The position numbers were made by a program, and so were the translations under genes. From Corallococcus silvisoli (GTDB lineage: Bacteria; Myxococcota; Myxococcia; Myxococcales; Myxococcaceae): a DNA stretch of 64,000 bases. The stretch spans positions 464,470-528,469 of the forward strand of contig NZ_JAAAPJ010000005.1 in the NCBI RefSeq assembly GCF_009909145.1. Direction: 5' to 3'. The notes beneath the pieces were generated by a model. It saw only the letters and a list, made by a program, of their open reading frames with translations. It did not search any database and was not told the origin of the DNA. Below, piece by piece: positions 1,692 to 45,469 of this stretch; position 1 is the first letter of the stretch, and each line of letters opens with the position of its first letter.

Positions 1692-4229
1692 TCACGCCGG
1701 CGGACGGCGCGCGCTGGGCACCTCGTGGGCCAGCGTGCGCACCGCCAGCGCCTCGCCGTCCTCGGGGTGCCGACGCAGGTCGCAGTCCCCCGACAGCAGC
1801 GTGAGGTTGGGGTTGTAGTAGGGGTCCCCTCTCAGCAGCCACGGCCGGTACGACGTGAAGGAGCGCCAGTAGTCCGGCTCCGGGATGGCGTCCGTGCGGC
1901 GGCTGGCGGACTCGTGGTGCACCACGCGCGCGAAGGGCGTGCACACCACGCGCAGGCCGCGAGCGTGCAGGCGCAGGCCCAGGTCCACGTCGCTGCCGCA
2001 CAGGAGGAAGCGCTCGTCGAAGCCGCCCAGCGCGTCGAAGAGCGGGCGGCGGATCATCACGCACGCGCTGGTGACGGACAGCCAGTTGCGCACCCACTCC
2101 GTGTGGCCGAAGGGCGTGGCGATGGGCCCATCCGGCAGGCGCCAGAAGGGGTGGCCCGCCATGCCCGTCATGCCCACCACGATGCCCGCGTGCTGCACGG
2201 TGCCTTCCGGAAAGAGGAGCTTGGCGCCTACCGCGCCCACCTCCGGGCGCTGCGCCTGGGCCACCAGCTCCGTGAGCCAGCCGGGGTCCACCACTTCCAT
2301 GTCGTTGTTGAGGAACAGCAGCAGCTCACCCGTGGCCTCCCGCGCGGCCCAGTTGTTGATGGCCGGGTAGTTGAAGGGGAAGTCCCAGGTGCGCTTCACC
2401 AGGCGCGGATCCTCCAGCCTGTCCAGCAGCGCGAAGGTCTCCGGGCGGACGCTGTTGTTGGACACCAGCAGCATCTCGAAGTGCGGGTACGTCGTGCGCT
2501 TCAGCAGCGTGTCCGTCAGGGTCTCCAGGAGGTCCGGCCGGTCCTTGAACGGAACGATGATGGACACCTTCGGCGTGCCCCGGACGGCGTAGCGCACGCG
2601 GTAGCGGCCCGGCCCCGGCACGGTCACCTCCGCGTCCTCACCCCGGCGCGTCAGGTGCTCGGCGAGCGCGCGACGGCCCTCCTGGGACACCTCGCCCACC
2701 TGTCCGGTGCGGCGGTGGTAGAGCAGGTGCGGCACGTGCCCGATGTGCTCGGAGGCTTCGCTCACGCGAAGGAAGAGGTCGTACTCCTCCGCGCCCGGAA
2801 AGCCCTCGCGAAAGCCGCCCACGGCCTCCACCAGCGCGCGGCGCACCATCACGCCCCGGCCCAGGTAGTCCACCGAGCGCAGCAGGTCCGGCGACCAGTC
2901 CGGCTTGAAGAACGGGGCCGTGCGCCGGCCGCGCGAATCCAGCCGGTCCTCATCGCCGTAGATCAGATCCAGGCCTGGGTCGGCGCCCAGGGCCAGGGCG
3001 ACCTCCGCCAGTGCGTTGGGCGCGAGCGTGTCCTCCGCGCCCAGCACGCCCACGAAGTCCCCGCTCGCGGCCTGAAGGCCCACGCGCAGCGCCCGGGCGA
3101 AGTCCGTGGGCCCGGAGAGCGTCACGCGGCGGATGCGCGTCTGGCGGTGCGCGGAGGCCCACGGCTCCGGCAGCGCGGGGCCGTCCTCCGGCCCCACCAG
3201 CACCAGCTCCCAGTCCGGGTACACCTGGGCCTCCACCGACGCCAGGCATTCGCGCAGGTGCGCGGGACAGGCCCCCGCGGTGGCCACCAGCAGGGACAGC
3301 CGGGGCCGGAGGGGCAGCCGCTCCAGGGCCTCGCGGGCGGCGTGGATGTCCGCCGGTTCGCGGAGCGTGCACCAGTGGTGGAAGTCCTCCAGCGCGGGCA
3401 GGGGCGGAGGCGGCGTGCGCACCCCGAGGATGGCGGCCAGCGCCACCACCGCCTCGCCGTTGAAGCGGGACTGCCGACGCAGCACCTCGCGCCACAGCGG
3501 CGCGGAGGCCCGGATGCCCCGGGGAAGGCCCGGACGCGCCAGCGGGGAGGCCAGCGCCACGAGCCGCGCCACCCGGTGCGTGGCATCCACGGTATCCGGC
3601 GTCCCCGCGCCCGGGACGGCGGCGACGGCCACCAGTGTTTCGCGCATGAGCGCGTTCCACTCCGCCTGTCGCGCGAGCAGGGGCTCCAGCACGGGCCCCA
3701 GCGCCCGGCGCCATGCGCGCCACGCCAGCTTCCACGCCACCGACGCGGGCGCGAAGCTTCGCGGCCCACGGTCAGGGGGCCTGCCGGTGCCCTGTGCGTC
3801 GAGCTGCTTGCGGGCCCACTCCGTCAAGTCGTCCCGGCCGCCCTGGTCTCGCCGGGCCTCCAACCGCTCCAACACCCGGAGCACGCGCTGGTTGAAGGCG
3901 GCCTGGGGCCGCAGCAGTTCGACGTGGAGCGGACGCAGGCCCAGGACGAAGGCGCGCTTGGCGGCCGTCACCCACTGCCCTCCCGAGGCCCGGTGCGACG
4001 GCGGAACGGAGAACTCGAACGGGACGGCGAGCCGGGCCGCGGCCAGCAAGGGCGACAGGGCCGTGTTGGCCGGAGGCGCCAGCCGGCGCAGCTGCTCCGT
4101 CAGGTCCGCGAGCGCCGCGGCGTTGGCCGCGTCGGGCTCGGCGCGCAACGCGGCGATCCGCTCCGCGATCTCTCCGGCGGACGCTGCCGCCTGCCCCCCC
4201 TCGGGCATGGTGTGGAACAAGGTGCTCAC
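1692..4229 (-). CDS. Large family-2 glycosyltransferase with two GT2 domains (WbgA-like O-antigen glycosyltransferase)
   Basis: Two GT2 signatures are present, LSLLVATAG....YPDWELVLVGPEDG and VSIIVPFKDRPDLLETLTDTLLKRTTYPHFEMLLVSNNS, each with a DxD region. The gene lies immediately downstream of wzm-wzt on the same strand, as in the M. xanthus wzm-wzt-wbgA locus. Confidence 0.75.
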   Translation of the reverse strand: MSTLFHTMPEGGQAAASAGEIAERIAALRAEPDAANAAALADLTEQLRRLAPPANTALSPLLAAARLAVPFEFSVPPSHRASGGQWVTAAKRAFVLGLRPLHVELLRPQAAFNQRVLRVLERLEARRDQGGRDDLTEWARKQLDAQGTGRPPDRGPRSFAPASVAWKLAWRAWRRALGPVLEPLLARQAEWNALMRETLVAVAAVPGAGTPDTVDATHRVARLVALASPLARPGLPRGIRASAPLWREVLRRQSRFNGEAVVALAAILGVRTPPPPLPALEDFHHWCTLREPADIHAAREALERLPLRPRLSLLVATAGACPAHLRECLASVEAQVYPDWELVLVGPEDGPALPEPWASAHRQTRIRRVTLSGPTDFARALRVGLQAASGDFVGVLGAEDTLAPNALAEVALALGADPGLDLIYGDEDRLDSRGRRTAPFFKPDWSPDLLRSVDYLGRGVMVRRALVEAVGGFREGFPGAEEYDLFLRVSEASEHIGHVPHLLYHRRTGQVGEVSQEGRRALAEHLTRRGEDAEVTVPGPGRYRVRYAVRGTPKVSIIVPFKDRPDLLETLTDTLLKRTTYPHFEMLLVSNNSVRPETFALLDRLEDPRLVKRTWDFPFNYPAINNWAAREATGELLLFLNNDMEVVDPGWLTELVAQAQRPEVGAVGAKLLFPEGTVQHAGIVVGMTGMAGHPFWRLPDGPIATPFGHTEWVRNWLSVTSACVMIRRPLFDALGGFDERFLLCGSDVDLGLRLHARGLRVVCTPFARVVHHESASRRTDAIPEPDYWRSFTSYRPWLLRGDPYYNPNLTLLSGDCDLRRHPEDGEALAVRTLAHEVPSARRPPA

Positions 4230-32040: not shown

Positions 32041-35000
32041 CTAAAGCTCATGCTCATAGGCTTTTTCCAGCGCGAGATTGTGGCAGCGATGCTCGGTGGT
32101 AGGGAAGCGTCTCCGTACGTCTTCCAAGGTCGCGACCGCATCGCGTCGGCTGCGGAACTGAACCGCCCGCTGGAATTGCATCATCAACTGACCGCAGCGG
32201 TGGTCCAGCTCCGTTGAAATCTGGGAGATCCGCTCCCGTACGTCCTCGTACAGGTCCGGCTTCTCGTCGAGCGCTTCCAGGGTGATCCACGCGGCCCGGT
32301 ACTCCCGCCACGCCTTGAAGAGGTTCTCCGCGCCCACATCCTTGAGCTCGTAGAACCGGGCTCCCGCCCGCGCGGACTCCCGAGCCGAAGCGACCAGCTG
32401 ATCCGGCGGCGCCTCGGGTACCGGGATGATCTCCAGCCGGAGGTTCCAGATGCGCCACCGCTCACGGCCGGGCGGATTCAGGGCGTTGTCGAAGAGGAGC
32501 TGGTTGTTCGCGTTGCGGCGCAGGAGGCTGGGGGGAAGGACCTGCTCCAGCTCGCGCTCGGCGGTCTGGGCCGTGTCGGGAGGGACCCAGCCCAGGGACA
32601 CGCCGTTGAGGGAGAGGTTCACCTCATCCCGGGAGATGTCACTCGCCTGGTAGTGCAGCACGGCCACCGCGCGTGTGGGGGACACGAAGCGGAAGTCGAA
32701 GAGCTTGTCGTCGGCGTGGGCCCAACGCACGCCATCGCCCAGGCCGAAGGAGTCCGTCACCGGCTCCAACCCCAGCTTGAACGGCTCACGGCCCGGGAGC
32801 CGGAGGCCCGCGGGGGCCACGGAGACCAGGAGGGCCAGCAACGCCAGCACGCTCAACACCCCGAGCGACGCGAAGCCGATGCGCCGAGGCAGCGACTGAC
32901 GCTGCCAGAAGAGGAGGAACTTGCCGTGCAACGACCGGCCCAGCTGACGCCGCTGCCGGGCCTTGTCGGCGGCGGATGAGGGCGCGACCTTCGCGACGAC
33001 GGTGATGGGTCCCGCGGGCACGGGCTGCGAGGAGGAAGCCTCCAGGTCGTTGACGGGCTCCGTGGTGTCGCCATCCGCCTCTGGTCGAGGATGGAGCGCC
33101 AGCGCGCGGACCTCGCCCGGTAGCAGCCCGGGATCCAGCACCGCGGGCGAAGCGCCCGGAGGCCGGCGCACGAAGGTCACCGGATCCGGCGGAGGGGGCG
33201 GAACCGACGACCCCCAGGCGGCCGACGGTGGCACACCACCCTGGTCGCGGCCGACCGCGGTCACCAGCTCGGGCGAGTCGGGCTCGGCAGGCGAGCCCCA
33301 GGACGACGGTGACACACCGCCCTGGTCGCGGCCGACCGCCGTCACCAGCTCGGGCGAGTCGGGCTCGGCGGGCGAGCTCCAGGACGACGGTGACACACCG
33401 CCCTGGTCGCGGCCCACGAAGGTCACCGGCTCTGGCGAAGGGGGCCCAACGGGCGCACCCCAGGCCGACGGGGGAGCCAACGCGGGAGGCCTGGCCCCAG
33501 GCTCATCCTGGCCCACGAAGGTCACCAGCTCTTCGGCCTCCGCGGGAGGGCCGGAGGGGACTTCGTCGTCCTGACCCACGAAGGTCGCCGGCTCATCGGT
33601 GCCGTTCGTGGGCAGGGCCCCGCTGTGGCGTACGGGCGGAGCGACGAGCGGGCTGACGGGAGTGATGGGCCGGAGGTCGAGCATGGTCCGCTCCTCCGGC
33701 TCATCCATCGTCGATGCGGGGAGCATGGACGGGGCGATGTGCGGGGACGGCTCGGCGACGAGGGATGGGACGTCCGGCGTCGCCGGGATCGCCATCAGCG
33801 TGCGTTCCTCGGGTTCATCGAATCCCGCGAGGGGCAGTTCCGGTGGTGGCGGGAAGCCGGGCTCCGGCGATTCCACGGTGGGAATCGCCATCAGCGTGCG
33901 CTCCTCGGGTTCGTCCGGATCCACCGGGGACAGATCCACGGGAGAAGTCAGGAGGCCGGCGACAGGGGCCTCCCAACCGCGGGGCGCGGAAGCAGGAGGA
34001 GGCGCCTGGGGTGGAGCGACCGGCTGCGGAGGCACGGCGGCCACGACGTTCCGGGGTTCCGGCGTGCGGCCCTGGGTCGGAGTCGAAGCCGCCGGTACGT
34101 TCCTTCGCGGTGCGGACGAGGGCGAAGCAGCGCTGTCCGCGTCACGAGGTTCAGAGAGCGTCGCCGTCGAGGACGCGCGTGCGGCGCCACGCCCCAGATC
34201 GGGACGATTGAGCGCGGGTGCGCCGACCTCGGGCAAGCCAGGGATGGCCTTTCGCCGAGGGGACGCTCCTGGCTGAGGAGGGCCCGACACAGCAGCGCCG
34301 AGCACGGGAGGCTTCGGCAGGACAGGCGCGGCGGAGGCTCCCACCCCGGACACTTCCAGCGCCGTGGAACGGGCCTGCGCGGCGACCCCGGCTGGAACAA
34401 CCGCCAACGACGGACTCCTGCCCGCCGACGAGGCCGCGCCCAGCCCGCCTCCCGACGAGGAGGACCTCCCCGGTGTCGAAGCGCCGACCGGCTGCGGACC
34501 TGGTGCGGAGGGCCTTCCCGATGACGAGCCATCGACGGCTGGCGATCCAGGCCCCGAGGCCCGGGCCTCGGAGGCTCCCCCCGGAGCAGGCGCAACCGGT
34601 CCCCTGTTTGGCGAGGAAGCCCCCAGGATCGGAGGCCCAACGGTGGCCTTGTTCGACGTGGGCGCATCGACCGCGGGCAAACCTGACGCCGACGCCTTCC
34701 CCGAACCGGGCCCCAACACGGGAGGCCCCACGGGAGCACGTCCCGATACCGTGGCTCCCGACATCGAGGCTCCCGGCGCGGAAGCCCCCAACACGGGAGG
34801 CCCCACGGGAGCACGTCCCGATACCGTGGCTCCCGACATCGACGCTCCCGGCGAGGAAGCCCCCAGCATGGGAGGTCCCACGGGAGCACGTCCCGATACC
34901 GTGGCCCCCGACATCGACGCTCCCGGCGCGGAAGCCCCCAATACGGGAGGCCCCCCAGGAATGCGTCCTGGCGCGGACGCACCTGCCGCAGCAGAGCCCG

Positions 35001-35781
35001 AAGCCCCCAGCACCGGAGGTCCCGCGGGAGCACGTCCCGCCGCGGACGCGCCTGCCGCAGCAGAGCCCGAAGCCCCCAACACGGGACCACCCGTCGGTGC
35101 CCGATTGGCCGTGGACGTACCCGCGGACGGAGGACCCGAAGCCCCCAACACGGGACCACCCGTCGGTGCCCGATTGGCCGTGGACGTACCCGCCGAAGCT
35201 CCCGGAACTCCCCCCCCCATCGAGGGAGCGCCCGTGGGTGCCCTGTTCGGCGTCGCGGCGCCTGCCCCTGGTTGAGCCGGAGTGGGAGCGCCGACCGCCG
35301 GAAGATCCGGAGCGGAGGGGCGCTTGGGCGGCGGCACCCGGACCTCGGGCTGCTTCGGCGTGGCGGGCGGAGCTTCCGACATCGCCCCACCCTTCGCGGC
35401 GGGCACGGCCATCCCGGGCCTCGGCGCGAACGCCGGACGCGCCATCGCGGGCATGGACTGCTGGTAGCTCGTGGGCGCCGCTTCGATCTCCGCGAGCGCG
35501 GCCTGCTCCACGCCCTGGGGCGACACCCGTGCGTGCGGCGGCGCGAGCACCCTGCGGATGGGCCGGGTCACATCGTCATCGTCGTCCGGCGGCATCCACA
35601 CGAAGGTGAACTCCACCGGTCCGACGGTGATGCGATCCCCGTCACGCAGCTGCTTCTCGCCCGCCAGCGGCTGGCCGTTGAGCTGCGTGCCGTTCGCGCT
35701 GCCTACGTCCTCGGCGAAGTAGCGCCCATCCCGCGCCGTGATGCGTGCATGCCGCCGGGAGACACCATGGTCATGCAGCAC
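32041..35781 (-). CDS. Giant FHA-domain protein (>=1246 aa) with 25-aa tandem repeats, TM segment and C-terminal globular domain; annotated from GTG but true start probably about 100 nt upstream
   Basis: FHA core (VKIGRTSENDLV)LHDHGVSRRHARITARDGRYFAEDVGSANGTQLNGQPL...GDRITVG. Residues 196-358 are P/G/A-rich repeats (GASMSGATVSGRAPVGPPVLGAS). Downstream are a Pro-rich region, a TM helix (IGFASLGVLSVLALLALLVSVA) and a conserved C-terminal domain of about 300 aa. The first half of the FHA domain (PILLTITQGLQVGRELAFEQAEVKIGRTSENDLV) is encoded in-frame upstream of the annotated GTG, with no ATG/GTG/TTG available. Confidence 0.7.
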   Translation of the reverse strand: MLHDHGVSRRHARITARDGRYFAEDVGSANGTQLNGQPLAGEKQLRDGDRITVGPVEFTFVWMPPDDDDDVTRPIRRVLAPPHARVSPQGVEQAALAEIEAAPTSYQQSMPAMARPAFAPRPGMAVPAAKGGAMSEAPPATPKQPEVRVPPPKRPSAPDLPAVGAPTPAQPGAGAATPNRAPTGAPSMGGGVPGASAGTSTANRAPTGGPVLGASGPPSAGTSTANRAPTGGPVLGASGSAAAGASAAGRAPAGPPVLGASGSAAAGASAPGRIPGGPPVLGASAPGASMSGATVSGRAPVGPPMLGASSPGASMSGATVSGRAPVGPPVLGASAPGASMSGATVSGRAPVGPPVLGPGSGKASASGLPAVDAPTSNKATVGPPILGASSPNRGPVAPAPGGASEARASGPGSPAVDGSSSGRPSAPGPQPVGASTPGRSSSSGGGLGAASSAGRSPSLAVVPAGVAAQARSTALEVSGVGASAAPVLPKPPVLGAAVSGPPQPGASPRRKAIPGLPEVGAPALNRPDLGRGAARASSTATLSEPRDADSAASPSSAPRRNVPAASTPTQGRTPEPRNVVAAVPPQPVAPPQAPPPASAPRGWEAPVAGLLTSPVDLSPVDPDEPEERTLMAIPTVESPEPGFPPPPELPLAGFDEPEERTLMAIPATPDVPSLVAEPSPHIAPSMLPASTMDEPEERTMLDLRPITPVSPLVAPPVRHSGALPTNGTDEPATFVGQDDEVPSGPPAEAEELVTFVGQDEPGARPPALAPPSAWGAPVGPPSPEPVTFVGRDQGGVSPSSWSSPAEPDSPELVTAVGRDQGGVSPSSWGSPAEPDSPELVTAVGRDQGGVPPSAAWGSSVPPPPPDPVTFVRRPPGASPAVLDPGLLPGEVRALALHPRPEADGDTTEPVNDLEASSSQPVPAGPITVVAKVAPSSAADKARQRRQLGRSLHGKFLLFWQRQSLPRRIGFASLGVLSVLALLALLVSVAPAGLRLPGREPFKLGLEPVTDSFGLGDGVRWAHADDKLFDFRFVSPTRAVAVLHYQASDISRDEVNLSLNGVSLGWVPPDTAQTAERELEQVLPPSLLRRNANNQLLFDNALNPPGRERWRIWNLRLEIIPVPEAPPDQLVASARESARAGARFYELKDVGAENLFKAWREYRAAWITLEALDEKPDLYEDVRERISQISTELDHRCGQLMMQFQRAVQFRSRRDAVATLEDVRRRFPTTEHRCHNLALEKAYEHEL
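34708..35196 (-). repeat. Intragenic tandem repeat array: degenerate 75-78 bp units, with three near-identical 75-bp copies at about 34708-34932
   Basis: The unit GGAGGCCCCACGGGAGCACGTCCCGATACCGTGGCTCCCGACATCGA(G/C)GCTCCCGGCG(C/A)GGAAGCCCCCAA(C/T)ACG recurs with fewer than 5 mismatches. The encoded repeat on the minus strand is GASMSGATVSGRAPVGPPVLGASAP. Confidence 0.8.
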
Positions 35782-35887: not shown

Positions 35888-36778
35888 CTAGCCCCCGACG
35901 TTCCCGAACATGAACTGGAACACGATGGGCCCGAAGAGCACCATGAACACCGTCGGGAAGATGCAGGCGATGAGCGGGAAGAGCATCTTCACCGGCGCCT
36001 CGCCGGCCAGCTTCTCCGCGCGCTGCGTGCGGTCGATGCGCATCTGCGTGGACTGGATGCGCAGCACCTTGCCCAGGCTCGTGCCCATCTTGTCCGCCTG
36101 GATCAGCGCCGTGACGAAGGTCGTCAACGACGGCAGGTCCACGCGAGCAATCATGCTCTTGAGCCCTTCCTCACGCGTCTTGCCCATCTTGAGCTGCTTG
36201 AGCACCAGCTGCAGCTCCTCGCGCAGCGGCCCCTGGCGGCCCTTCTCCACCACCTTCGCGAGCGCACCCGTGAAGTCCATGCCCGCTTCCACCGACAGCG
36301 TGAGCAGGTCCAGGTTGTACGGAAGCGCGCGGCTGATGGCCAGGTGGCGGCGCTTCACCTGATCGTTCAACCAGATGAGCGGATAGAAGAGCCCCAGCAG
36401 CATCACCAGCAGCGACCAGGCCAGGTTGCCGCCAAGGCCGTTGACGACGAAGAGGCCCGCCAGCAGGGCAAAGAAGGCGCTGACTTCCTGCAGCGCCATG
36501 ATGTCCTCGGGCTTGTACTGCGACGGCTCGCCCGCCTTGATCAGCTTGCGGCGCGTCTTGGACTCGTAGCCCGGCCACATGAAGCGCCGGTTCATCGCGC
36601 CCAGCTTGCGGACGGCGACGGAGCCCGCGCCCTTCACGCCACCCGCGGACTCGTCACGTACCTCCGTGAGGAAGCGTTCGAGGACGTTGGTGTAGAGGCC
36701 GACGCCCAGGAACGCCACCGCGCCCGCAGTGAGCAGTGCCGAGCCGCCCATCAGCAAGAATGTCAGGAAATCCTGCAC
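35888..36778 (-). CDS. tadC: Tad/Flp pilus assembly inner-membrane platform protein TadC (T2SSF domain)
   Basis: GspF/TadC-type T2SSF domain (LPYNLDLLTLSVEAGMDFTGALAKVVEKGRQGPLREELQLVLKQLKMGKTREEGLKSM) flanked by TM helices. 296 aa. Confidence 0.85.
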   Translation of the reverse strand: MQDFLTFLLMGGSALLTAGAVAFLGVGLYTNVLERFLTEVRDESAGGVKGAGSVAVRKLGAMNRRFMWPGYESKTRRKLIKAGEPSQYKPEDIMALQEVSAFFALLAGLFVVNGLGGNLAWSLLVMLLGLFYPLIWLNDQVKRRHLAISRALPYNLDLLTLSVEAGMDFTGALAKVVEKGRQGPLREELQLVLKQLKMGKTREEGLKSMIARVDLPSLTTFVTALIQADKMGTSLGKVLRIQSTQMRIDRTQRAEKLAGEAPVKMLFPLIACIFPTVFMVLFGPIVFQFMFGNVGG

Positions 36779-36791
36779 GGTGCGCCTCGAT

Positions 36792-37637
36792 TCAGATGTC
36801 GATGTTGACGATGCGCCGGATGATGAGGATGCCCATGATCTCCATGATGGCGATGATGGTCACCAGGATGTAGCCGAAGATGTGGTTCATCATCGGCTCC
36901 ATCAGGTCCGGACGCATGTAGTTGAGGACCAGGCCCAGCACCGCAGGCATGGCCGCGACGATCCACCCTTGAAGCTTGCCCTGGGACGTCAGCGCGTCGA
37001 TCTTGCCTTCCAGACGGAAGCGCTCGCGGATCACCGTGGAGATGGTCTCGAACATCTCCGCCATGTTGCCGCCCAGCTGGCGCGCGATGTTGGTGGACAC
37101 CACCACCAGCTCCAGGTCATCGCTGCCCACCCGGCGGCCCATGTTGACGAGCGCCTCTTCCAGGGGAACGCCCAGCTTCACTTCCTTCACGAAGAGGCCG
37201 AACTCCTGTGACAGGGGCGGCATCGCCTCGCGCGCCACGTGCTCGATGGCCTGCGGGAACGTGAGACCCGCCTTGAACGCGTTGGCCATGGCCTGCAGCG
37301 CGTCCACCAACTGCACGTTGAACTTCTTGATGCGGCGCGTGCGGTAGTGCTTCACGAGCAGCATCGGCAGGAAGAAACCGAAGATGGTCGCCAGCACCGC
37401 CAGGATGGGGTTGAAGACGATGTAGCTGAGGATGCCCAGGAGGCACATGCACGCGATGTTGAGGATCAACATCTGCCGCGCGTCGATGAAGAGGAACATG
37501 TCGCTCAAGTCGTTCATCGACTTGGCGACGTAGCGCTCCTGGTACTGCTCATACGCCTTCGACAGGACGCTGAAGATCACCAGGCTGAAGAAGAACACCG
37601 AGCCGGTGACGAGAAGGAGGACGATACCTGCGAGCAT
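36792..37637 (-). CDS. tadB: Tad/Flp pilus assembly inner-membrane platform protein TadB (T2SSF domain)
   Basis: T2SSF domain (LVDALQAMANAFKAGLTFPQAIEHVAREAMPPLSQEFGLFVKEVKLGVPLEEALVNMGRRVGSDDLELVV) with N- and C-terminal TM helices. 281 aa, 13 nt upstream of tadC. Confidence 0.85.
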   Translation of the reverse strand: MLAGIVLLLVTGSVFFFSLVIFSVLSKAYEQYQERYVAKSMNDLSDMFLFIDARQMLILNIACMCLLGILSYIVFNPILAVLATIFGFFLPMLLVKHYRTRRIKKFNVQLVDALQAMANAFKAGLTFPQAIEHVAREAMPPLSQEFGLFVKEVKLGVPLEEALVNMGRRVGSDDLELVVVSTNIARQLGGNMAEMFETISTVIRERFRLEGKIDALTSQGKLQGWIVAAMPAVLGLVLNYMRPDLMEPMMNHIFGYILVTIIAIMEIMGILIIRRIVNIDI

Positions 37638-37715: not shown

Positions 37716-38531
37716 CTACGGCGAGCCAGCCGCCGACTTGTCGCTGCCGCCACCCTTGATGATCTGGATGATCTCCCGGCGCTTCTGCTCCAGCACGCGG
37801 GTGCGCTCGCCGGACAGCAGCGTGCTGATGGTCGCGCGGCCGCGCTCCTCGATGAGGTCCACGTCGTCCTCGTTGCGCAGCGACAGGGTCAGCTGTCCGA
37901 GCTCCGCCGCCAGCACCAGGATCTCCGCCTCTTCCGGCAGCACCATCAGCGACACGTTGTTGTAGTCGCGCTGGTTCTCCGGGATGAGGTTGATGTTCGT
38001 GGTGCCGGTGATCTTGCCCGTGGCGACCACGATGATGTTCTGCAGCAGCGTCACCGCGACGCTCTCATCCGTCTGCGGATCGCGGAACGTGCCGATGATG
38101 TCCACGTGGTCGTTGGGACGGATCCACCCGCCCACGGCCGTGGTCAGCTTCGCCTCGATGGTGATGGCGCGCGCCTTCTTCTGCACCTTCGTCGACAGGC
38201 GCTCGGCGGCCTTCGTCGTCTCGAACTGGCTCCAGAGGATGGGGTCGCCGGCCTGCAGCGCCACGAGCACCTTCTGGTTCACGATGTAGTTGGCGGAGTC
38301 CGGCTTCACCACCGACGAGGTGACGAACTGCTCCGGCACGGAGCGCTGGGAGATCATCTCGTACGTGATGACCGACCCCTCGGGCATGTCCTGGCCCGCC
38401 ACCACCACGGGCACCAGGTTCCACCCGCGACGCACATCCGATTCCTTCTTCTTGATGGCCGAGTAGGCCACGATGCCGGCGAGCAAACCGAGCACCAGCG
38501 CGACGACGAGCGGGGTCTTACCCTTCAACAT
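37716..38531 (-). CDS. cpaB: Flp pilus assembly protein CpaB/RcpC (SAF domain)
   Basis: N-terminal TM anchor LVVALVLGLLAGIVAYSAI, then a SAF-like and RcpC beta region (VPVVVAGQDMPEGSVITYEMI...). 271 aa. RBS GGAGGA located 7 nt upstream. Confidence 0.85.
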   Translation of the reverse strand: MLKGKTPLVVALVLGLLAGIVAYSAIKKKESDVRRGWNLVPVVVAGQDMPEGSVITYEMISQRSVPEQFVTSSVVKPDSANYIVNQKVLVALQAGDPILWSQFETTKAAERLSTKVQKKARAITIEAKLTTAVGGWIRPNDHVDIIGTFRDPQTDESVAVTLLQNIIVVATGKITGTTNINLIPENQRDYNNVSLMVLPEEAEILVLAAELGQLTLSLRNEDDVDLIEERGRATISTLLSGERTRVLEQKRREIIQIIKGGGSDKSAAGSP

Positions 38532-38614
38532 GGTTCAAGGTCCTCCAGAACGGTGGGGCGCCGTCGTGGCGGCAGGACTGCTTTGGACGAGGGGGCAATG
38601 CCAGGGCGCGAACG

Positions 38615-38672
38615 AGTGAAGATGTTAGCCATGCCCCAGAGCAGGTGTCAAAACCACCTCTCGTGACAAAGC
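38615..38672 (-). promoter_or_regulatory. Candidate promoter/operator upstream of cpaB: TTGACA-like -35 inside a TGTCA-N13-TGACA inverted repeat, with a TAACAT -10-like hexamer 18 nt downstream
   Basis: The minus-strand sequence reads CTTTGTCACGAGAGGTGGTTTTGACACCTGCTCTGGGGCATGGCTAACATCTTC. It lies in the only sizeable non-coding gap (about 230 nt) inside the Tad block, between the pilin and cpaB. Confidence 0.25.
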
Positions 38673-38760
38673 GGAATCCCTGGACGCCTGGGAGGCCGCG
38701 GCGCCTGTCCACCCCCGGGGGGACGGCGCGAAACGCGGCCGGATCCATGGCCTCCGTCCC

Positions 38761-39063
38761 TCAGGGGAACGGCAGGTTCAGCACGAAGTAGAACGAGTCG
38801 TAATAAATCTGGTACGCCTCGAGGAAGAGGTCGATGACGTTGGTCTGCTTGTCCTCGCTCCAGCGGACCTTCACCGTGGCGCCGACGACGAGCGCGACGA
38901 TCAACACCCAGTTGATCATCGAGTACTCCACCATCGCCTGGCCACGGCGGGCCCTGCGCGGGGAGCGCTTCGACGACTTCCGGGGAGTGTTCACGGGGGG
39001 ATGATCCACGTCCGGCCTCATGGTCGCATCATCCACGGCCCGGGGGAGCGCCGCATCGGTCAT
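38761..39063 (-). CDS. Flp-type (type IVc/Tad) prepilin with unusually long basic leader
   Basis: The prepilin peptidase motif is G/XXXXEY in RRARRG-QAMVEYSMINWVLIVALVVGATV, with E at +5 and Y at +6, followed by a hydrophobic helix. The mature part of about 59 aa (…KVRWSEDKQTNVIDLFLEAYQIYYDSFYFVLNLPFP) is pilin-sized. The leader is 27-41 aa depending on start (MTDAALP or MRPDVDH). Confidence 0.6.
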   Translation of the reverse strand: MTDAALPRAVDDATMRPDVDHPPVNTPRKSSKRSPRRARRGQAMVEYSMINWVLIVALVVGATVKVRWSEDKQTNVIDLFLEAYQIYYDSFYFVLNLPFP

Positions 39064-39101
39064 GTGGACCGTCGCCGGAGAAAGCGCGGCGGCCCCCTCC
39101 C

Positions 39102-40547
39102 CTATTCCGTGGGCGCCGGGGCGCTGGCGGGCAGCTTCGTGCTGGCGGCGGGCGCCATGATGGGCGCGGCCTTGCGCATGCGGCGCTGGGCCATCTGGGC
39201 GGCGCCGGACTCGGGGGCTTCGTGGACGACCTGGGCGCAGACGACCGCGGCGGCGTCGCTCTGGCCCTGAGCGGACTCCGAGTCACACAGCCGCGAGAGC
39301 AGGTCCAGCCGCTCACCGCCACTGGGTCCGGCCGCGAGCGCGGCGCGCAGCAGCTGGGCCTCCCGGACGCGATCTCCCTGGCTCGCGGCGGCTTGCGCCT
39401 GACGGGCCAGCTCGCGCGACGTCATCGCTCCGGCCGGGGGCTGCTTCTCCATGGGCTTGGGCTTCGCGGCCTCCGCGCGTGCCGATTCCTTCACCGGTTC
39501 GGCGACCGCGCGGGCCGGGCCCGGGGCCAGCTTCGAGGCGCTGACCGCGCCGGTGGCGGAAGGCGTCGCGGGCGCGGCCTGCGCCATGGGCGCCGAGGCC
39601 ACCGGCGCCGGAGGCGGCGGCGACGCGGCCTCTCCCATGGCGGCATCGTCGGACGCGAGCCCGCGCCCGTAGGACGCACCGCCCAGCCGCAGTGAGTCGC
39701 GCTTCGCGACCTGGGCCTTGTCCGTGCCTCCCCCTGCCTGGTCGAACGCGGAGTCCGAGGTGGAGCGTGCGTCCTTCCCGCCATACACGGCGCCGGCCGC
39801 CTCTTCCTTCGGGGCCTGTGCCGGCTCGAGCGCCGCGAACTCGCCGTCCGCGTCCTGGGCCTTGGACAGCTTCTTCGTGGGCGCGGGCCCCTCGCGTCGG
39901 CGCTCCAGCATCGCGCCTCCACCGCCCGCGTTCATCCAATCCGACGGACGGCCCGCGGCATTGCCCTTGAGCTGCGCATCCGCCTGATTCCGTGCGGGCG
40001 CGTCTTTCAGCGCCTCGGAGGCCGGAGCCGCCGCCAGCAGGTCATCGCTCCGCGGGGTGTAACTCCTCCCCATCGGCGCGGGCGCGGAGGCGGGCGCGGA
40101 CTTCGGCTCGCGCTTGCCCAGCGTGCGGGTCTCATCCTCCGCCGGGGCCCTCGCGGGGCTCGCGGTCTTCTGCGCCAGGTTCGGCTCCAGGTGGAGGCCC
40201 TCGTTGACCTCCAGCGACAGGATGCCGAAGGTGCTCACCGTGGCCAGGCCCACCGCGGGCAAGAGCCAGCGGCGCCAGCGCGAGGGCTTCGGCTCCGGCC
40301 CCGCGGAGGCGCGGCGCGCGGACTGCTGGGCGTACGCGAGCAGCGACTCCAGGCCCGCGTCCGGCGCGGGTTCGGTCGACAGCTGCGCCATGGTGGTGCG
40401 CACGCCGCGGATGTCCGCCAGCGCCTTGGAACAGCGCACACAGCCCTGGACGTGCTGCTCCAACGCCTGGGCCTCCGTCGCCGGAAGCTCGCCGTAGGCG
40501 AAGTCGAGGAGCCGGTCCTCGTGCGCGTGAGCATTCTGGGCACTCAT
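39102..40547 (-). CDS. Anti-sigma factor (zf-HC2 type), single-pass membrane protein with long low-complexity periplasmic region
   Basis: Start MSAQNAHAHEDRLLDFAYGELP. Zinc-finger anti-sigma motif HVQGCVRCSKALADI (H-x3-C-x2-C). TM segment WLLPAVGLATVSTFGILSL. The start overlaps the stop of the upstream ECF sigma gene (ATGA). The 155-aa N-terminal extension in the ORF track is rejected. Confidence 0.7.
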   Translation of the reverse strand: MSAQNAHAHEDRLLDFAYGELPATEAQALEQHVQGCVRCSKALADIRGVRTTMAQLSTEPAPDAGLESLLAYAQQSARRASAGPEPKPSRWRRWLLPAVGLATVSTFGILSLEVNEGLHLEPNLAQKTASPARAPAEDETRTLGKREPKSAPASAPAPMGRSYTPRSDDLLAAAPASEALKDAPARNQADAQLKGNAAGRPSDWMNAGGGGAMLERRREGPAPTKKLSKAQDADGEFAALEPAQAPKEEAAGAVYGGKDARSTSDSAFDQAGGGTDKAQVAKRDSLRLGGASYGRGLASDDAAMGEAASPPPPAPVASAPMAQAAPATPSATGAVSASKLAPGPARAVAEPVKESARAEAAKPKPMEKQPPAGAMTSRELARQAQAAASQGDRVREAQLLRAALAAGPSGGERLDLLSRLCDSESAQGQSDAAAVVCAQVVHEAPESGAAQMAQRRMRKAAPIMAPAASTKLPASAPAPTE

Positions 40548-41191
40548 CCCGCCACCGTCCTTCCATCCTCCGACAGGTCGCCATCCACACCCAGCTCGCC
40601 CAGGCGGCGGCGCAAGCCCTCCAGCGCGTAACGCATCCGGCTCTTCACCGTGTTTTCGGACACGCCCGTCACCTCGGCGATCTCCTTGAACGGGATGCCG
40701 CTGTACTCCCGCAGCACGAACACCTCGCGCTGCTCCTCCGGCAGCCCCGCGAGGGCCCGCTCCAGCAGGGGCCGCAGGCGCGCGTTGTGCGCGCCGCGCT
40801 CCGGACTGGCACCGGCGTCCGGCAGCCCCTCGCCCAACGGACGTCCCTCGTCCCCGTCCGCACCGGCCGCGGGGGCCTCCAGGGACGTCGCCTGGCGGTA
40901 GCTCTCTTTGCGCGTGCTGTCCACGCAGAGGTTCCTCGCGATGGTGTACAGCCAGGTCGTGAACCGGGCCTTCGGCGCGTATTCCCGGGCACTGCGGACC
41001 ACCTTGAGCCACGTCTCCTGCAGCACGTCCTCCGCCCGCGCCCGGTGCCCGACGAAGCGCAGGATGAAGTTGAACACCGGCGCGCGGTGCTTTCGCACCA
41101 GCGCCTCGAACGCACGCGCGTCTCCCGCCTGGAAGGCGAGCATCAGATGCTCGTCTGAGGTTTCGGGTGCCAAACTTCCCCCAGTGCCCAT
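40544..41191 (-). CDS. ECF-type RNA polymerase sigma-70 factor
   Basis: Sigma70 region 2 (FEALVRKHRAPVFNFILRFVGHRARAEDVLQETWLKVVRS...FTTWLYTIARNLCVDSTR) and region 4 (LPEEQREVFVLREYSGIPFKEIAEVTGVSENTVKSRMRYALEGLRRRL). The start is ambiguous (41191 or 41224). Confidence 0.8.
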   Translation of the reverse strand: MGTGGSLAPETSDEHLMLAFQAGDARAFEALVRKHRAPVFNFILRFVGHRARAEDVLQETWLKVVRSAREYAPKARFTTWLYTIARNLCVDSTRKESYRQATSLEAPAAGADGDEGRPLGEGLPDAGASPERGAHNARLRPLLERALAGLPEEQREVFVLREYSGIPFKEIAEVTGVSENTVKSRMRYALEGLRRRLGELGVDGDLSEDGRTVAG

Positions 41192-41255
41192 GAAGCCACG
41201 GGTGCCATCCCCTTCGCCGCCCACCGCCTGTAACGGACAGCCGTGCGCGAAAGGT

Positions 41256-43702: not shown

Positions 43703-43706
<4 letters not shown>

Positions 43707-44704
43707 TTCTGGGCCAGCTCCTCCAGGAACTCCGCCTCCTGGATGAGCCCCTTGCGGATGAGCAGGCGGATGAGGCTCGCGACCATGCGCGCGGGCTTCA
43801 CCTTCTCCGTGTCCAGGCTGGCCTCCTCGCCGCGAGAGATGCGGTCGATGTCGTCCAGCACCGCCAGGTCCTCCTCGGAGAAGTCCGGCTTGGGCGTGAG
43901 CGCCACCGACGGCTTCACGCCCTGCGCGGCGCCGCCGAAGAGCACCACCGGCACGCGCGGCTTGTTGGGATCCGCGTCCGCCTCCGAGGGCGGCGGCGGC
44001 GGCGGGGGCGGAGGCCTCGCGGCGGCGGGGGGCGGCGGGGGCCTGGCGGCGGGCCGGGGCTTGGAGCCCAGGATGTCCTCCAGCACCTCCGCGCCGTCCG
44101 CGGAGGACTCGTGGGGCGGCGGCGGGGGCAGGTCCCAGTCCAGAGGCGGAGGCGCGGGCGGGCGCGCCGACGAGGGACGCGCGGCGGCGGGCGCCGGCGT
44201 CGACGGCAGGATGTCCGGCGAATCGTCCTCGTCCATGTCCATCGGTTCTGCCTCCACGATGTCCAGGGGCTCTCCCCGGCCGCGCGCGAGCGCCTGCTCC
44301 AGGTCGTCTGGAGCGGCGACAAAGACCTTGAGCTGCTTGCGCAGTTGGAAGCGCAGCTGGTCCACCAGGTTCAGGTTGCCCGGGTCCTCCACCGCCACGT
44401 GGAGCTTCTCGCTGCGGCCGTCCTGCTCCAGCGCGAAGAGCAGCACGCGCTGCTCGGTCTGGAAGTCCATGGACACCAGCGAGGACACCGCGTGCGGGAT
44501 GTACTCGGGGATCTCCACGAAGGGCAGCTCGTGCTGCGCCGCCAGCGCCCGCGCGATGTCCCGGCCGGTGCACAGGCCCATGGACACCAGCACCTCGCCC
44601 AGCTTGCGGCCCTGGCCGCGCCGTCCGGAGGCCAATGCCTGCTTCACCTGCTCGTCCGTGACCACGCCCGCCTGGACGAGGAGTTCACCAATCTTCTTGC
44701 GCAT
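43703..44704 (-). CDS. GspE N-terminal (T2SSE_N / MshEN-like) domain protein with long Pro-rich tail
   Basis: [63 protein letters not shown] is the canonical T2SSE_N helical hairpin found at the N-terminus of GspE/MshE ATPases. No ATPase domain follows, only a P/A-rich low-complexity region of about 120 aa and a short C-terminal helix. Confidence 0.65.
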
Positions 44705-44713
44705 GGCCGGGGG

Positions 44714-45469
44714 CTACCGCTTGACCTTGGCGAGGTATTCCTCGCGGGAAAAAACGCCCTTCTCGATGAGCAGCTCCACCATGGCCTTGAGCGCCGCGAC
44801 CTCCTTGCGCTGCACGTCCTCCACGCTCTTGAGCAGCTCCGCGGGACTTCCGGAGGCCGCCGCGCGAGGCGCCTCCGCGGGAGGCGGCGGACGGGCCGGC
44901 GCGGGGGCGGGACGGGCGGGCGCGGACGCAGCGACCGCGGCGGCCGGGTCCAGGTCCTTGAGGTTCTTCACGACGGTGCGGCCCTGGGCGTCCACCACCT
45001 TGAAGTTGGTGTCCGCGTCCTCCAATTCCGCCGACTCCTCGTAGAGGCGCGCGAACGCCCGCGCCACGGACGTGCGCCCCGCCACGTTGGCCACGATGCG
45101 GCACTTGGACAGGGCCCGCAGCTCGTCCAGCACCCGCACGTTGAGCGGATCCGACATCGCGACCACCAGCGTCTTGCCGTCGTCGCGCAGCTGCAGGGGC
45201 ACGACAGAGAAGTCGCGCGCCGTCTGCGAGGGAATCTTGGCCTTCACGTGCGGCGGCACCGCCTGCACGGCGTCCAGGTTCACCGCCGGCATGCCGAGCT
45301 GCTTCGACAAGGCGCGCACGAGGATGTCCTCGGAGACGAGGTTCATCCGGACGAGGATCTCGCCCAGCTTCCCGCCCCACTTGGCCTGCTCGGCGAGCGC
45401 CGCCTTGAGCTGGCTCTCCTGCAGGACGTTCGCCTTGATCAGCAGTTCTCCAAGCTTGATCTGTGCCAT
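44714..45469 (-). CDS. GspE N-terminal (T2SSE_N / MshEN-like) domain protein, paralog
   Basis: MAQIKLGELLIKANVLQESQLKAALAEQAKWGGKLGEILVRMNLVSEDILVRALSKQLGMPAV carries the same T2SSE_N signature, followed by a second helical region and a P/A-rich linker. 9 nt upstream of its paralog. Confidence 0.65.
   Translation of the reverse strand: MAQIKLGELLIKANVLQESQLKAALAEQAKWGGKLGEILVRMNLVSEDILVRALSKQLGMPAVNLDAVQAVPPHVKAKIPSQTARDFSVVPLQLRDDGKTLVVAMSDPLNVRVLDELRALSKCRIVANVAGRTSVARAFARLYEESAELEDADTNFKVVDAQGRTVVKNLKDLDPAAAVAASAPARPAPAPARPPPPAEAPRAAASGSPAELLKSVEDVQRKEVAALKAMVELLIEKGVFSREEYLAKVKR

Follow-up and report, generated by a model that had tools for sequence, protein, structure and literature searches.

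A Probable Corallococcus Ortholog of the Minor Pilin KilK: Identity, Start Codon, and a Conserved Upstream Element

Identity of the Gene

An open reading frame (ORF) of 100 codons lies on the minus strand at positions 38761–39063 of a 64,000-nucleotide (nt) stretch of Corallococcus silvisoli DNA (contig NZ_JAAAPJ010000005.1), and this whole stretch is called the window in what follows. We think that the gene is very probably kilK, which encodes a minor pilin of the Flp type that belongs to the Kil pilus, a Tad-like pilus with which myxobacteria kill prey. Its translation, MTDAALPRAVDDATMRPDVDHPPVNTPRKSSKRSPRRARRG/QAMVEYSMINWVLIVALVVGATVKVRWSEDKQTNVIDLFLEAYQIYYDSFYFVLNLPFP, is the one given in an earlier note made from the sequence alone, in which the product was taken for a Flp/Tad-type prepilin; the motif, the size, the predicted helix-loop-helix fold, and the tad-like locus all agree with that proposal. 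The Flp call draws on published genetics and on orthology, besides the motif and the predicted fold. The gene is already known, being the Corallococcus ortholog of a pilin worked out in Myxococcus xanthus between 2021 and 2025. The new points are modest: a family signature that is missing from Pfam, a corrected start, a compact form of the locus, and a conserved element with a fixed distance to an ATG.

Among 5.8 billion proteins searched, 265 homologs were found, all of them from Myxococcaceae or Archangiaceae and most of them 74–78 residues long; the nearest named sequences belong to C. exercitus, C. praedator, C. sicarius, and related species. The M. xanthus homolog (P0031, MNHPKTLRSHARNRRGQAMLEYS...FVLNLPFP) was found with E = 3.3e-31, and its identity to the window protein is 73% by BLAST and 75% in alignment A1. 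It is KilK (MXAN_4655), as can be read from the kilK cloning primers published by Herrou et al. in 2025 (PMC12075869). The primers kilK-for (...ATGAACCACCCGAAGACGCTG) and kilK-rev (...TCACGGGAACGGCAGGTTCAG, taken as its reverse complement) encode the ends of P0031, matching its first seven codons (MNHPKTL) and its last six codons plus stop (LNLPFP and stop). Moreover, the genomic neighbours of P0031 are those listed for kil cluster II by Seef et al. in 2021 (PMC8460266). Besides about 75% identity, M. xanthus KilK shares with the window protein the motif R-G/QAM(V/L)EYS, the C-terminal YQIYYDSFYFVLNLPFP, and a mature length of 59 residues, and the flanks of the two genes are also shared, with an extracytoplasmic-function (ECF) sigma factor and its anti-sigma factor upstream and kilB, kilG, and kilH downstream. 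The two differ in that M. xanthus kilK stands inside a long gene row and has a leader of 16 residues, whereas the window kilK directly follows the anti-sigma gene and its leader probably has 27.

The protein has the build of a small prepilin. Some 20 hydrophobic residues, SMINWVLIVALVVGATV, come after the predicted cleavage motif G41/QAMVEY47, and the Gly, Gln, Glu, Tyr, and Ser of the cleavage site are invariant in alignments A1, A2, and A4. Eleven of the 59 residues of the mature part are aromatic, seven of them within the last 17, and the positions Y84, Y87, Y88, D89, S90, Y92, F93, V94, L95, N96, L97, P98, F99, and P100 do not vary in A1. Both halves of the family signature are present, R-G/Q(A/S)M(V/L)EYS at the N-terminal side and AYQxYYDS(F/Y)YFVLNLPFP at the C-terminus, as invariant columns in the same three alignments. 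An exhaustive search with a hidden Markov model (HMM) against 1.84 billion representative proteins gave 119 clusters at 50% identity (P0241–P0359) with E ≤ 0.001. Even distant members of 55–73 residues keep the G/Q-x-x-x-E-Y start and an end of the form (A)Y-x-x-Y-x-x-S-(F/Y)-Y-x-x-L-x-L-P-(F/I/V/L)-P, which makes the aromatic tail the signature of a small and distinct subfamily.

Neither the basic leader nor the aromatic tail is peculiar to the window copy; both are traits of the whole family. Among 112 homologs as annotated, the leader has a median of 16 residues and a median net charge of +6. The strongly basic leader remarked on earlier is present, as a common property of KilK proteins. 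The tail, described at the same time as unusual, is so among canonical Flp pilins, and it is invariant within the KilK family, so that it does not single out this copy. A family so sharply signed is nevertheless missed by Pfam and NCBIfam, and a profile of its own would reveal Kil-type predatory pili.

The mature part evolves under purifying selection, the ratio of nonsynonymous to synonymous substitution rates being 0.17–0.49, and the variability of its codons is 0.08, 0.04, and 0.10 at the first, second, and third positions. Selection on the 59 mature codons, together with their conservation, shows that the ORF is a real gene.

Separately, the last 20 or so codons of kilK (38764–38825, minus strand) are nearly without synonymous change among 13 Corallococcus sequences, which may be due to strong codon bias or to an overlapping constraint at the nucleotide level. 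In M. xanthus, kilK and MXAN_4654 overlap, the 3′ end of the former with the start of the latter.

Relationship to the Flp and TadE Families

Canonical Flp pilins (PF04964), such as Caulobacter PilA and Flp1 of Aggregatibacter actinomycetemcomitans, share with the window protein the Gly at −1, the Glu at +5, the Tyr at +6, the N-terminal helix alpha1N, and a very small size without a globular domain; they are also encoded beside genes of the cpaB/tadB/tadC type. They have no significant similarity to it beyond the motif, and they differ in other respects: only 2 residues in 45 are aromatic in PilA, against 11 of 59 here, the KilK leader is much more basic (+6 to +8), and the role of KilK is that of a minor pilin and not of a fibre.

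An AlphaFold2 model of the 77-residue form (mdbe613f3ced2, built with 111 sequences) has a helix at residues 12–40, a short hairpin, and a second helix at 53–72. Its predicted local distance difference test score averages 73.6 and reaches 89 in the alpha1N block; the short beta hairpin is a low-confidence detail. A first model, from 22 sequences, was weaker and had a similar fold. At this moderate model confidence, the mature part is Flp-like in size and fold, with 59 helical residues and no globular beta domain, and the context is also that of a Flp gene, with a CpaB gene and two T2SSF platform genes immediately downstream. Proteins of the TadE/TadF type (PF07811) are about 150–400 residues long and have a globular part, unlike the 59-residue mature protein, which gave no TadE match.

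Several results weigh against the identification as a Flp-type Kil pilin. Neither Pfam Flp_Fap nor TadE matched the ORF at E ≤ 1 or any of 22 family members at E ≤ 10, and NCBIfam had no matching model at all. A profile of the family found nothing among the Protein Data Bank (PDB) sequences at E ≤ 10. In an hhalign comparison with 20 Caulobacter-type Flp pilins only the 15-residue cleavage motif was aligned, with a probability of 1.6%, in the register RARRG-QAMVEYSMIN on KDESG-ATAIEYGLIV (Caulobacter PilA type). Foldseek against the PDB gave no match for the first model and only chance helical matches (E > 1), none of them a pilin, for the second, a result that is uninformative, as expected, because the protein consists of two helices. 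As for function, the evidence all comes from M. xanthus and none from Corallococcus, and the adapter position proposed for KilK derives from AlphaFold modelling in the literature and from no solved structure. Finally, the locus differs from that of M. xanthus, being without the Tip4 genes (kilM4, kilN4, and kilL4) and without homologs of MXAN_4653, 4654, 4656, and 4657.

Ten distant family members gave scores that are all below threshold, with E = 0.007 and 0.038 for TadE and 0.0046 for Class_IIIsignal; the best Flp_Fap score among the distant members was E = 0.082, or 13 bits against a cut-off of 32. The window protein belongs to the KilK group, Flp-like by motif and fold and outside the Pfam Flp family (PF04964). 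The earlier note would have given up the pilin assignment if Flp_Fap and TadE similarity and the N-terminal hydrophobic helix were all missing; the family matches are indeed absent, and the helix is predicted.

Start Codon and Upstream Element

The start of kilK has to be read together with a conserved bipartite element that lies upstream of it. The layout of this element is GTCCAnnTGACCGATGC, 19–20 nt, GATAAT, 6–7 nt, and ATG, and it occupies 39025–39069 (minus strand) in the window and 4077–4128 in the M. xanthus locus (L001). Its first block, of 17 nt, is invariant in 13 Corallococcus sequences and was found in about 50 loci, 3′ of the gene for the anti-sigma factor, in both the compact and the expanded types described below. 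In Myxococcus, Pyxidicoccus, Hyalangium, and others it recurs as GTCCATTTGACCGATGC between the anti-sigma gene and kilM4. The second block is a hexamer box. Among the 41 loci with both blocks, the distance from the box to the first ATG is 6 nt in 31 and 7 nt in five, and the ATG in question is the kilM4 start in M. xanthus and ATG 39021 in the window.

Three starts can be considered for the window gene, giving leaders of 41 residues (ATG 39063), 27 residues (ATG 39021), or 18 residues (GTG 38994). We favour ATG 39021 as the probable start; GTG 38994 is a possible but distinctly weaker candidate, and ATG 39063 has very little chance. Two loci speak directly for the box-adjacent ATG. It is the only possible KilK start in Myxococcaceae bacterium GXIMD 01537 (L083), with a leader of 26 residues, and in one Corallococcus locus (L015) an in-frame deletion of 24 nt has removed the GTG (codon 24 of the long ORF) and joined the ATG to TPSPRK. 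Since the GTG is deleted in the second and has no equivalent in the first, the box-adjacent ATG must be the start in both.

If translation began instead at GTG 38994, the leader would have an ordinary 18 residues and ATG 39021 would fall in a short 5′ untranslated region, a reading to which we give a minority chance. This GTG aligns with the annotated KilK start in Myxococcus, Pyxidicoccus, Hyalangium, and Archangium; the M. xanthus start (L001 10001–10003) is itself a GTG (GTG-AAC) that overlaps the stop of MXAN_4656 (GTGA), and a construct starting at the equivalent codon complemented the M. xanthus kilK deletion (PMC12075869). NCBI annotates 74–77 residues for several Corallococcus species. 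Two further points favour the GTG and count against the upstream ATG: codons 15–23 lack a coding-type substitution pattern, and L010 has no ATG at codon 15 and carries a GTG 9 nt after the box instead. On the other side, no Shine-Dalgarno sequence precedes GTG 38994, this codon is lost in L015 and absent in L083, and the ATG 6–7 nt after the box is kept in 36 of the 41 loci, where a leaderless transcript would use its 5′-terminal AUG. Taken by themselves, the alignment with other genera and the codon statistics favour GTG 38994, but the box-to-ATG spacing and the L015 and L083 cases outweigh them.

In the published complementation construct, the GTG was replaced by ATG and the pilA promoter was used.

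With ATG 39021 as the preferred start, the leader has nine more residues than with the GTG; they are poorly conserved, and there is no sign of a special function for them. Leaders of class III prepilins range from 6 to 26 residues, the upper end being that of A. actinomycetemcomitans Flp1 with 26 (PMC4471445). The leader had been described as exceptionally long, at 27–41 residues. The lower bound is plausible and now preferred, and exceeds that of Flp1 by a single residue; the upper bound is ruled out, and with it the exceptional length.

Translation of the whole 100-codon ORF, with a true 41-residue leader that had gained some added function such as regulation or slower processing, is very improbable. 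It is true that 12 of 13 Corallococcus sequences have no stop in the frame after M1, that every indel before codon 24 has a length divisible by three, and that several database entries are annotated with 97–100 residues. However, preservation of the frame with only two indels has a likelihood of about 1 in 9 by chance. M1 itself (39061–39063) lies inside the 17-nt block, which is conserved at all three codon positions and is intergenic in Myxococcus, where the matching triplet reads TTG. An in-frame TGA stands at codon 5 in L005, Corallococcus sp. CA053C, codons 5–9 are hypervariable, and codons 1–14 vary by 0.21, 0.24, and 0.19 at the three positions, without third-position bias. Such bias is also absent from codons 1–23, where the G+C content at third positions is 0.78–0.79 compared with 0.89–0.97 in downstream, real coding sequence. 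In addition, GAT or CAT makes up five of the six Asp/His codons of the upstream extension but only 12 of 64 such codons in neighbouring genes (Fisher p = 0.0026). We take the 41-residue leader to be an artefact that arises when the open frame is read too far upstream.

Public annotations of Corallococcus kilK (P0001–P0015, L004–L015) disagree with each other, giving 74, 76, 77, 82, 86, 97, or 100 residues. The comparative data argue for a Corallococcus KilK product of 86, or possibly 77, residues.

The fixed spacing of 6–7 nt and the lack of a Shine-Dalgarno sequence suggest that the box is a promoter −10 element and that the kilK mRNA is leaderless. Two other assignments were rejected: a plain sigma-70 promoter (TTGACC...GATAAT), because its spacing of 24–25 nt is too long, and an ECF-type promoter shared with the block upstream of the sigma gene (CTGTCCGTTACAGGC...), since sequence and spacing differ. 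We put forward, tentatively and as a possibility short of even chances, that the element is a dedicated leaderless-mRNA promoter serving any pilin gene that comes next after the ECF sigma/anti-sigma pair, which in Myxococcus is the gene that opens the Tip4 operon, and that in Corallococcus and a few other lineages it has been joined directly to kilK. If this were true, the KilK leader would have 26–27 residues, and the supply of adapter might follow an envelope or prey-contact signal via the sigma/anti-sigma pair or via an activator near −41. The element, with its fixed distance to the ATG, offers a concrete candidate for a control point of the kil pilin genes.

Function and Proposed Mechanism

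Seef et al. first annotated KilK as the major pilin, and the defect of its deletion was only partial (PMC8460266). In 2025, Herrou et al. found that the major pilin is KilP (MXAN_5121), whose filament they made visible at contacts with prey, and showed that KilK and KilO are Flp minor pilins of low expression in M. xanthus. Deletion of kilK abolishes the function of Tip1, Tip2, and Tip4, deletion of kilO inactivates Tip3, and in the kilK kilO double mutant there is neither KilP polymerisation nor a pilus. In the published AlphaFold models, the KilP bundle takes up the N-terminal helix of KilK, and the C-terminal helix is lodged between KilM, KilN, and KilP (PMC12075869). The proposal, made from the sequence, that the window gene encodes a specialised pilin and not a fibre subunit matches these genetics; the spike role suggested alongside finds no support, as the models put KilK at the junction of tip and filament.

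The window gene might instead encode the major Flp pilin, the subunit that would form the fibre of the Kil/Tad pilus in Corallococcus, a role originally assigned to KilK in 2021 (PMC8460266). It is the sole pilin gene beside kilB, kilG, and kilH in the window, and its product has the Flp size and the Flp motif. We consider this very improbable, because in M. xanthus the kilK deletion defect is partial, KilP forms the labelled filament, and kilK transcription is very low (PMC12075869), and because the window protein shares 75% identity and the invariant C-terminus with KilK, while KilP ends in QNNAY and not in NLPFP according to the primers. The start of the window protein also differs from the primer-derived one of KilP, so that by its ends it is not KilP.

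KilP is, like the window KilK, a Flp-type and fully helical protein with the G/XXXXE motif, and it is built into pili by the same machinery. It has 97 residues, is encoded elsewhere, builds the filament body, and starts with MKAG, its ends being known here from primers only; moreover, deletion of kilP abolishes predation in M. xanthus, unlike the partial defect of kilK. KilO (MXAN_1150), specific for Tip3, is closer in kind: a small minor pilin of Flp-like, fully helical build that has both a leader and a cleavage motif, proposed to be an adapter (PMC12075869). It differs in being a 59-residue prepilin of the tip3 cluster with a VIQAPI end in place of NLPFP, and it is known here from primers and description only. 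The minor pilins that couple tip and filament in other type IV filaments, for example the type II secretion pseudopilins, have the same proposed job of joining the two and priming assembly (PMC12075869); they have globular heads and are not Flp-sized, and the likeness is one of role only.

In class III signal peptides, the basic leader holds the N-terminus in the cytoplasm while the hydrophobic helix enters the inner membrane. For the window gene, translation would most likely start at ATG 39021 and give an 86-residue prepilin, or otherwise at GTG 38994 and give one of 77 residues. The basic KilK leader would stay cytoplasmic while alpha1N inserts into the inner membrane, and, judging from the motif, a prepilin peptidase would cut after Gly41 to leave a 59-residue mature pilin starting with QAMVEY. 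By analogy with the M. xanthus genetics, mature KilK would act as an adapter and not as the fibre, which would be made of KilP. Following the structural models, alpha1N would pack into the top of the KilP filament and the invariant aromatic C-terminal helix would be placed between the KilM/KilN tip pilins and KilP. KilK may thereby dock the KilL/M/N tip complex and prime polymerisation, as the M. xanthus case suggests. In the genome of the window, kilK is the sole pilin gene left at the core locus and stands directly behind the conserved promoter-like element that appears to drive the Tip4 operon in Myxococcus; the Tip clusters and kilP would lie elsewhere.

That the ORF is no gene at all and only an untranslated leader or regulatory region of cpaB/kilB, an outcome named in the earlier note as one that would overturn the pilin assignment, has practically no chance: the ORF is short and without a Pfam match, and antisense or shadow ORFs are common in high-GC DNA, but its mature codons are under purifying selection, it has 265 homologs with invariant residues, its ortholog was deleted and complemented in M. 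xanthus, it has no Rfam match, and kilB has its own conserved promoter 3′ of the ORF (TTGACA-N18-TAACAT, in the 230-nt gap), so kilK is not the leader of cpaB.

Locus Structure and Neighbouring Genes

The features discussed are collected in Table 1. The gene immediately upstream of kilK is that of the anti-sigma factor, and the gap of 38 nt between its stop and the first ATG (39063), reported earlier, was confirmed. The flanking genes are 88–94% identical to their M. xanthus counterparts, and two genes for FHA-domain proteins lie further downstream; the names kilG and kilH are taken from Supplementary file 1 of PMC8460266. A six-frame motif scan of the whole window found no other prepilin-like motif, so that kilK is, as had been stated, the only pilin gene of the block. 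Gene prediction over the window from third-position G+C content was confounded by antisense frames and served this motif scan only. No prepilin peptidase gene was found in the window.

Table 1. Coordinates of kilK, its parts, the associated signals, and the neighbouring genes in the window.
Feature	Position	Strand	Remarks
kilK coding sequence, preferred start ATG 39019–39021	38761..39021	-	86-residue prepilin plus stop TGA 38761–38763; probable KilK ortholog
Leader peptide MRPDVDHPPVNTPRKSSKRSPRRARRG	38941..39021	-	27 residues, or 18 from GTG; Arg/Lys-rich; invariant Arg-Gly end
Predicted prepilin-peptidase site G41/Q42-A-M-V-E46-Y47	38923..38943	-	Gly −1, Glu +5, Tyr +6
Hydrophobic N-terminal helix, residues 43–64 of long ORF	38872..38937	-	alpha1N assembly interface; AlphaFold2 models
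C-terminal amphipathic aromatic helix and NLPFP end, residues 76–100	38764..38838	-	KilK family signature; predicted helix 53–72
Alternative start GTG, codon 24 of long ORF	38992..38994	-	77-residue prepilin; aligns with other genera
Long-ORF codons 1–14	39022..39063	-	Most likely untranslated; overlaps conserved regulatory element
Block 1 of upstream element, GTCCACATGACCGATGC; other genera GTCCAtTTGACCGATGC	39053..39069	-	Single exact match in window
Box GATGAT (relatives GATAAT or GATACT), candidate −10	39028..39033	-	6 nt upstream of ATG 39021
Sigma-70-type promoter TTGACA-N18-TAACAT for kilB-kilG-kilH	38622..38651	-	10/12 matches, 0.0 expected in shuffles
ECF sigma factor	about 40544–41224	-	Pfam Sigma70_r2/r4; upstream neighbour, same pair in M. 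xanthus
zf-HC2 anti-sigma factor, MXAN_4661 homolog	39102 to about 40550	-	Pfam zf-HC2; stop TAG 39102–39104
kilB (CpaB/RcpC homolog)	37716..38531	-	TIGR03177 pilus_cpaB E = 5.5e-56; 91% identical to M. xanthus KilB
kilG, TadB/TadC-type platform protein	36792–37637	-	Pfam T2SSF; 94% identical to M. xanthus KilG
kilH, TadB/TadC-type inner-membrane platform protein	35888–36778	-	Pfam T2SSF

Three arrangements of the locus were distinguished by tblastn with M. xanthus proteins. The expanded one, found in Myxococcus, Pyxidicoccus, Citreicoccus, Hyalangium, and many metagenome-assembled genomes (MAGs), has the order sigma, anti-sigma, kilM4, kilN4, kilL4, 4657, 4656, kilK, 4654, (4653), kilB. In Archangium, Cystobacter, and Vitiosangium, the block from kilM4 to 4654 stands beside an inverted anti-sigma/sigma pair, away from kilB. 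The compact one has sigma, anti-sigma, kilK, and kilB only, and occurs in all Corallococcus, in GXIMD 01537, and in several deep-branching MAGs. The seven intervening genes are missing from all 12 full-length Corallococcus loci (L004–L015) and from the window (38532–39101, compared with L001 4029–12025), and in this compact form kilK takes the place behind the element that precedes kilM4 elsewhere. The difference may reflect a loss of the seven genes in Corallococcus or their gain in the other lineage. The leader of one deep-branching MAG (L046), MSRSEIHPPIRQK, resembles that of Corallococcus, MRPDVDHPPVNTPRK. A core locus that keeps kilK and has neither Tip4 genes nor the four unknown genes fits the idea that KilK is a generally needed adapter and Tip4 is dispensable.

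A gap of 230 nt separates kilK from kilB and contains the kilB promoter, which is conserved throughout the Corallococcus loci and also upstream of M. xanthus kilB. No intrinsic terminator was found after kilK, and an Rfam scan of 38400–39300 returned nothing. With RNAalifold, the kilK-kilB spacer gave GC-rich stems with a covariation term of +0.7, and no conserved RNA structure is claimed. According to a 2026 preprint, the M. xanthus cluster as a whole is predicted to form a single operon of 20 genes, a prediction with which internal promoters are compatible.

The kilB promoter is part of a longer invariant stretch, GAGAGGTGGTTTTGACACC, after which a long conserved 5′ region extends to the kilB start. 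Between the genes for the DUF2085 protein and the ECF sigma factor there is another strongly conserved non-coding block, at about 41185–41255 (minus strand), which reads GACCTTTC-N8-CTGTCCGTTACAGGC...GAAGGGGATGGCACCCGTGGCTTCATGGGCAC. It is possibly a promoter or operator of the sigma/anti-sigma pair, and it does not match the kilK element.

Downstream, the FHA-domain protein homologous to MXAN_4649 (32041–35781, minus strand) has 1246 residues, compared with 484 in M. xanthus, and the extra length is made up of Pro/Ala/Gly/Ser-rich tandem repeats with periods of 81, 75, and 69 nt. A few kilobases upstream of the kil cluster, two adjacent proteins (43703–44704 and 44714–45469, minus strand) have MshEN, the N-terminal domain of GspE/MshE-type ATPases, as their sole recognisable domain; next come a DUF4292 protein and an ExbB/ExbD pair.

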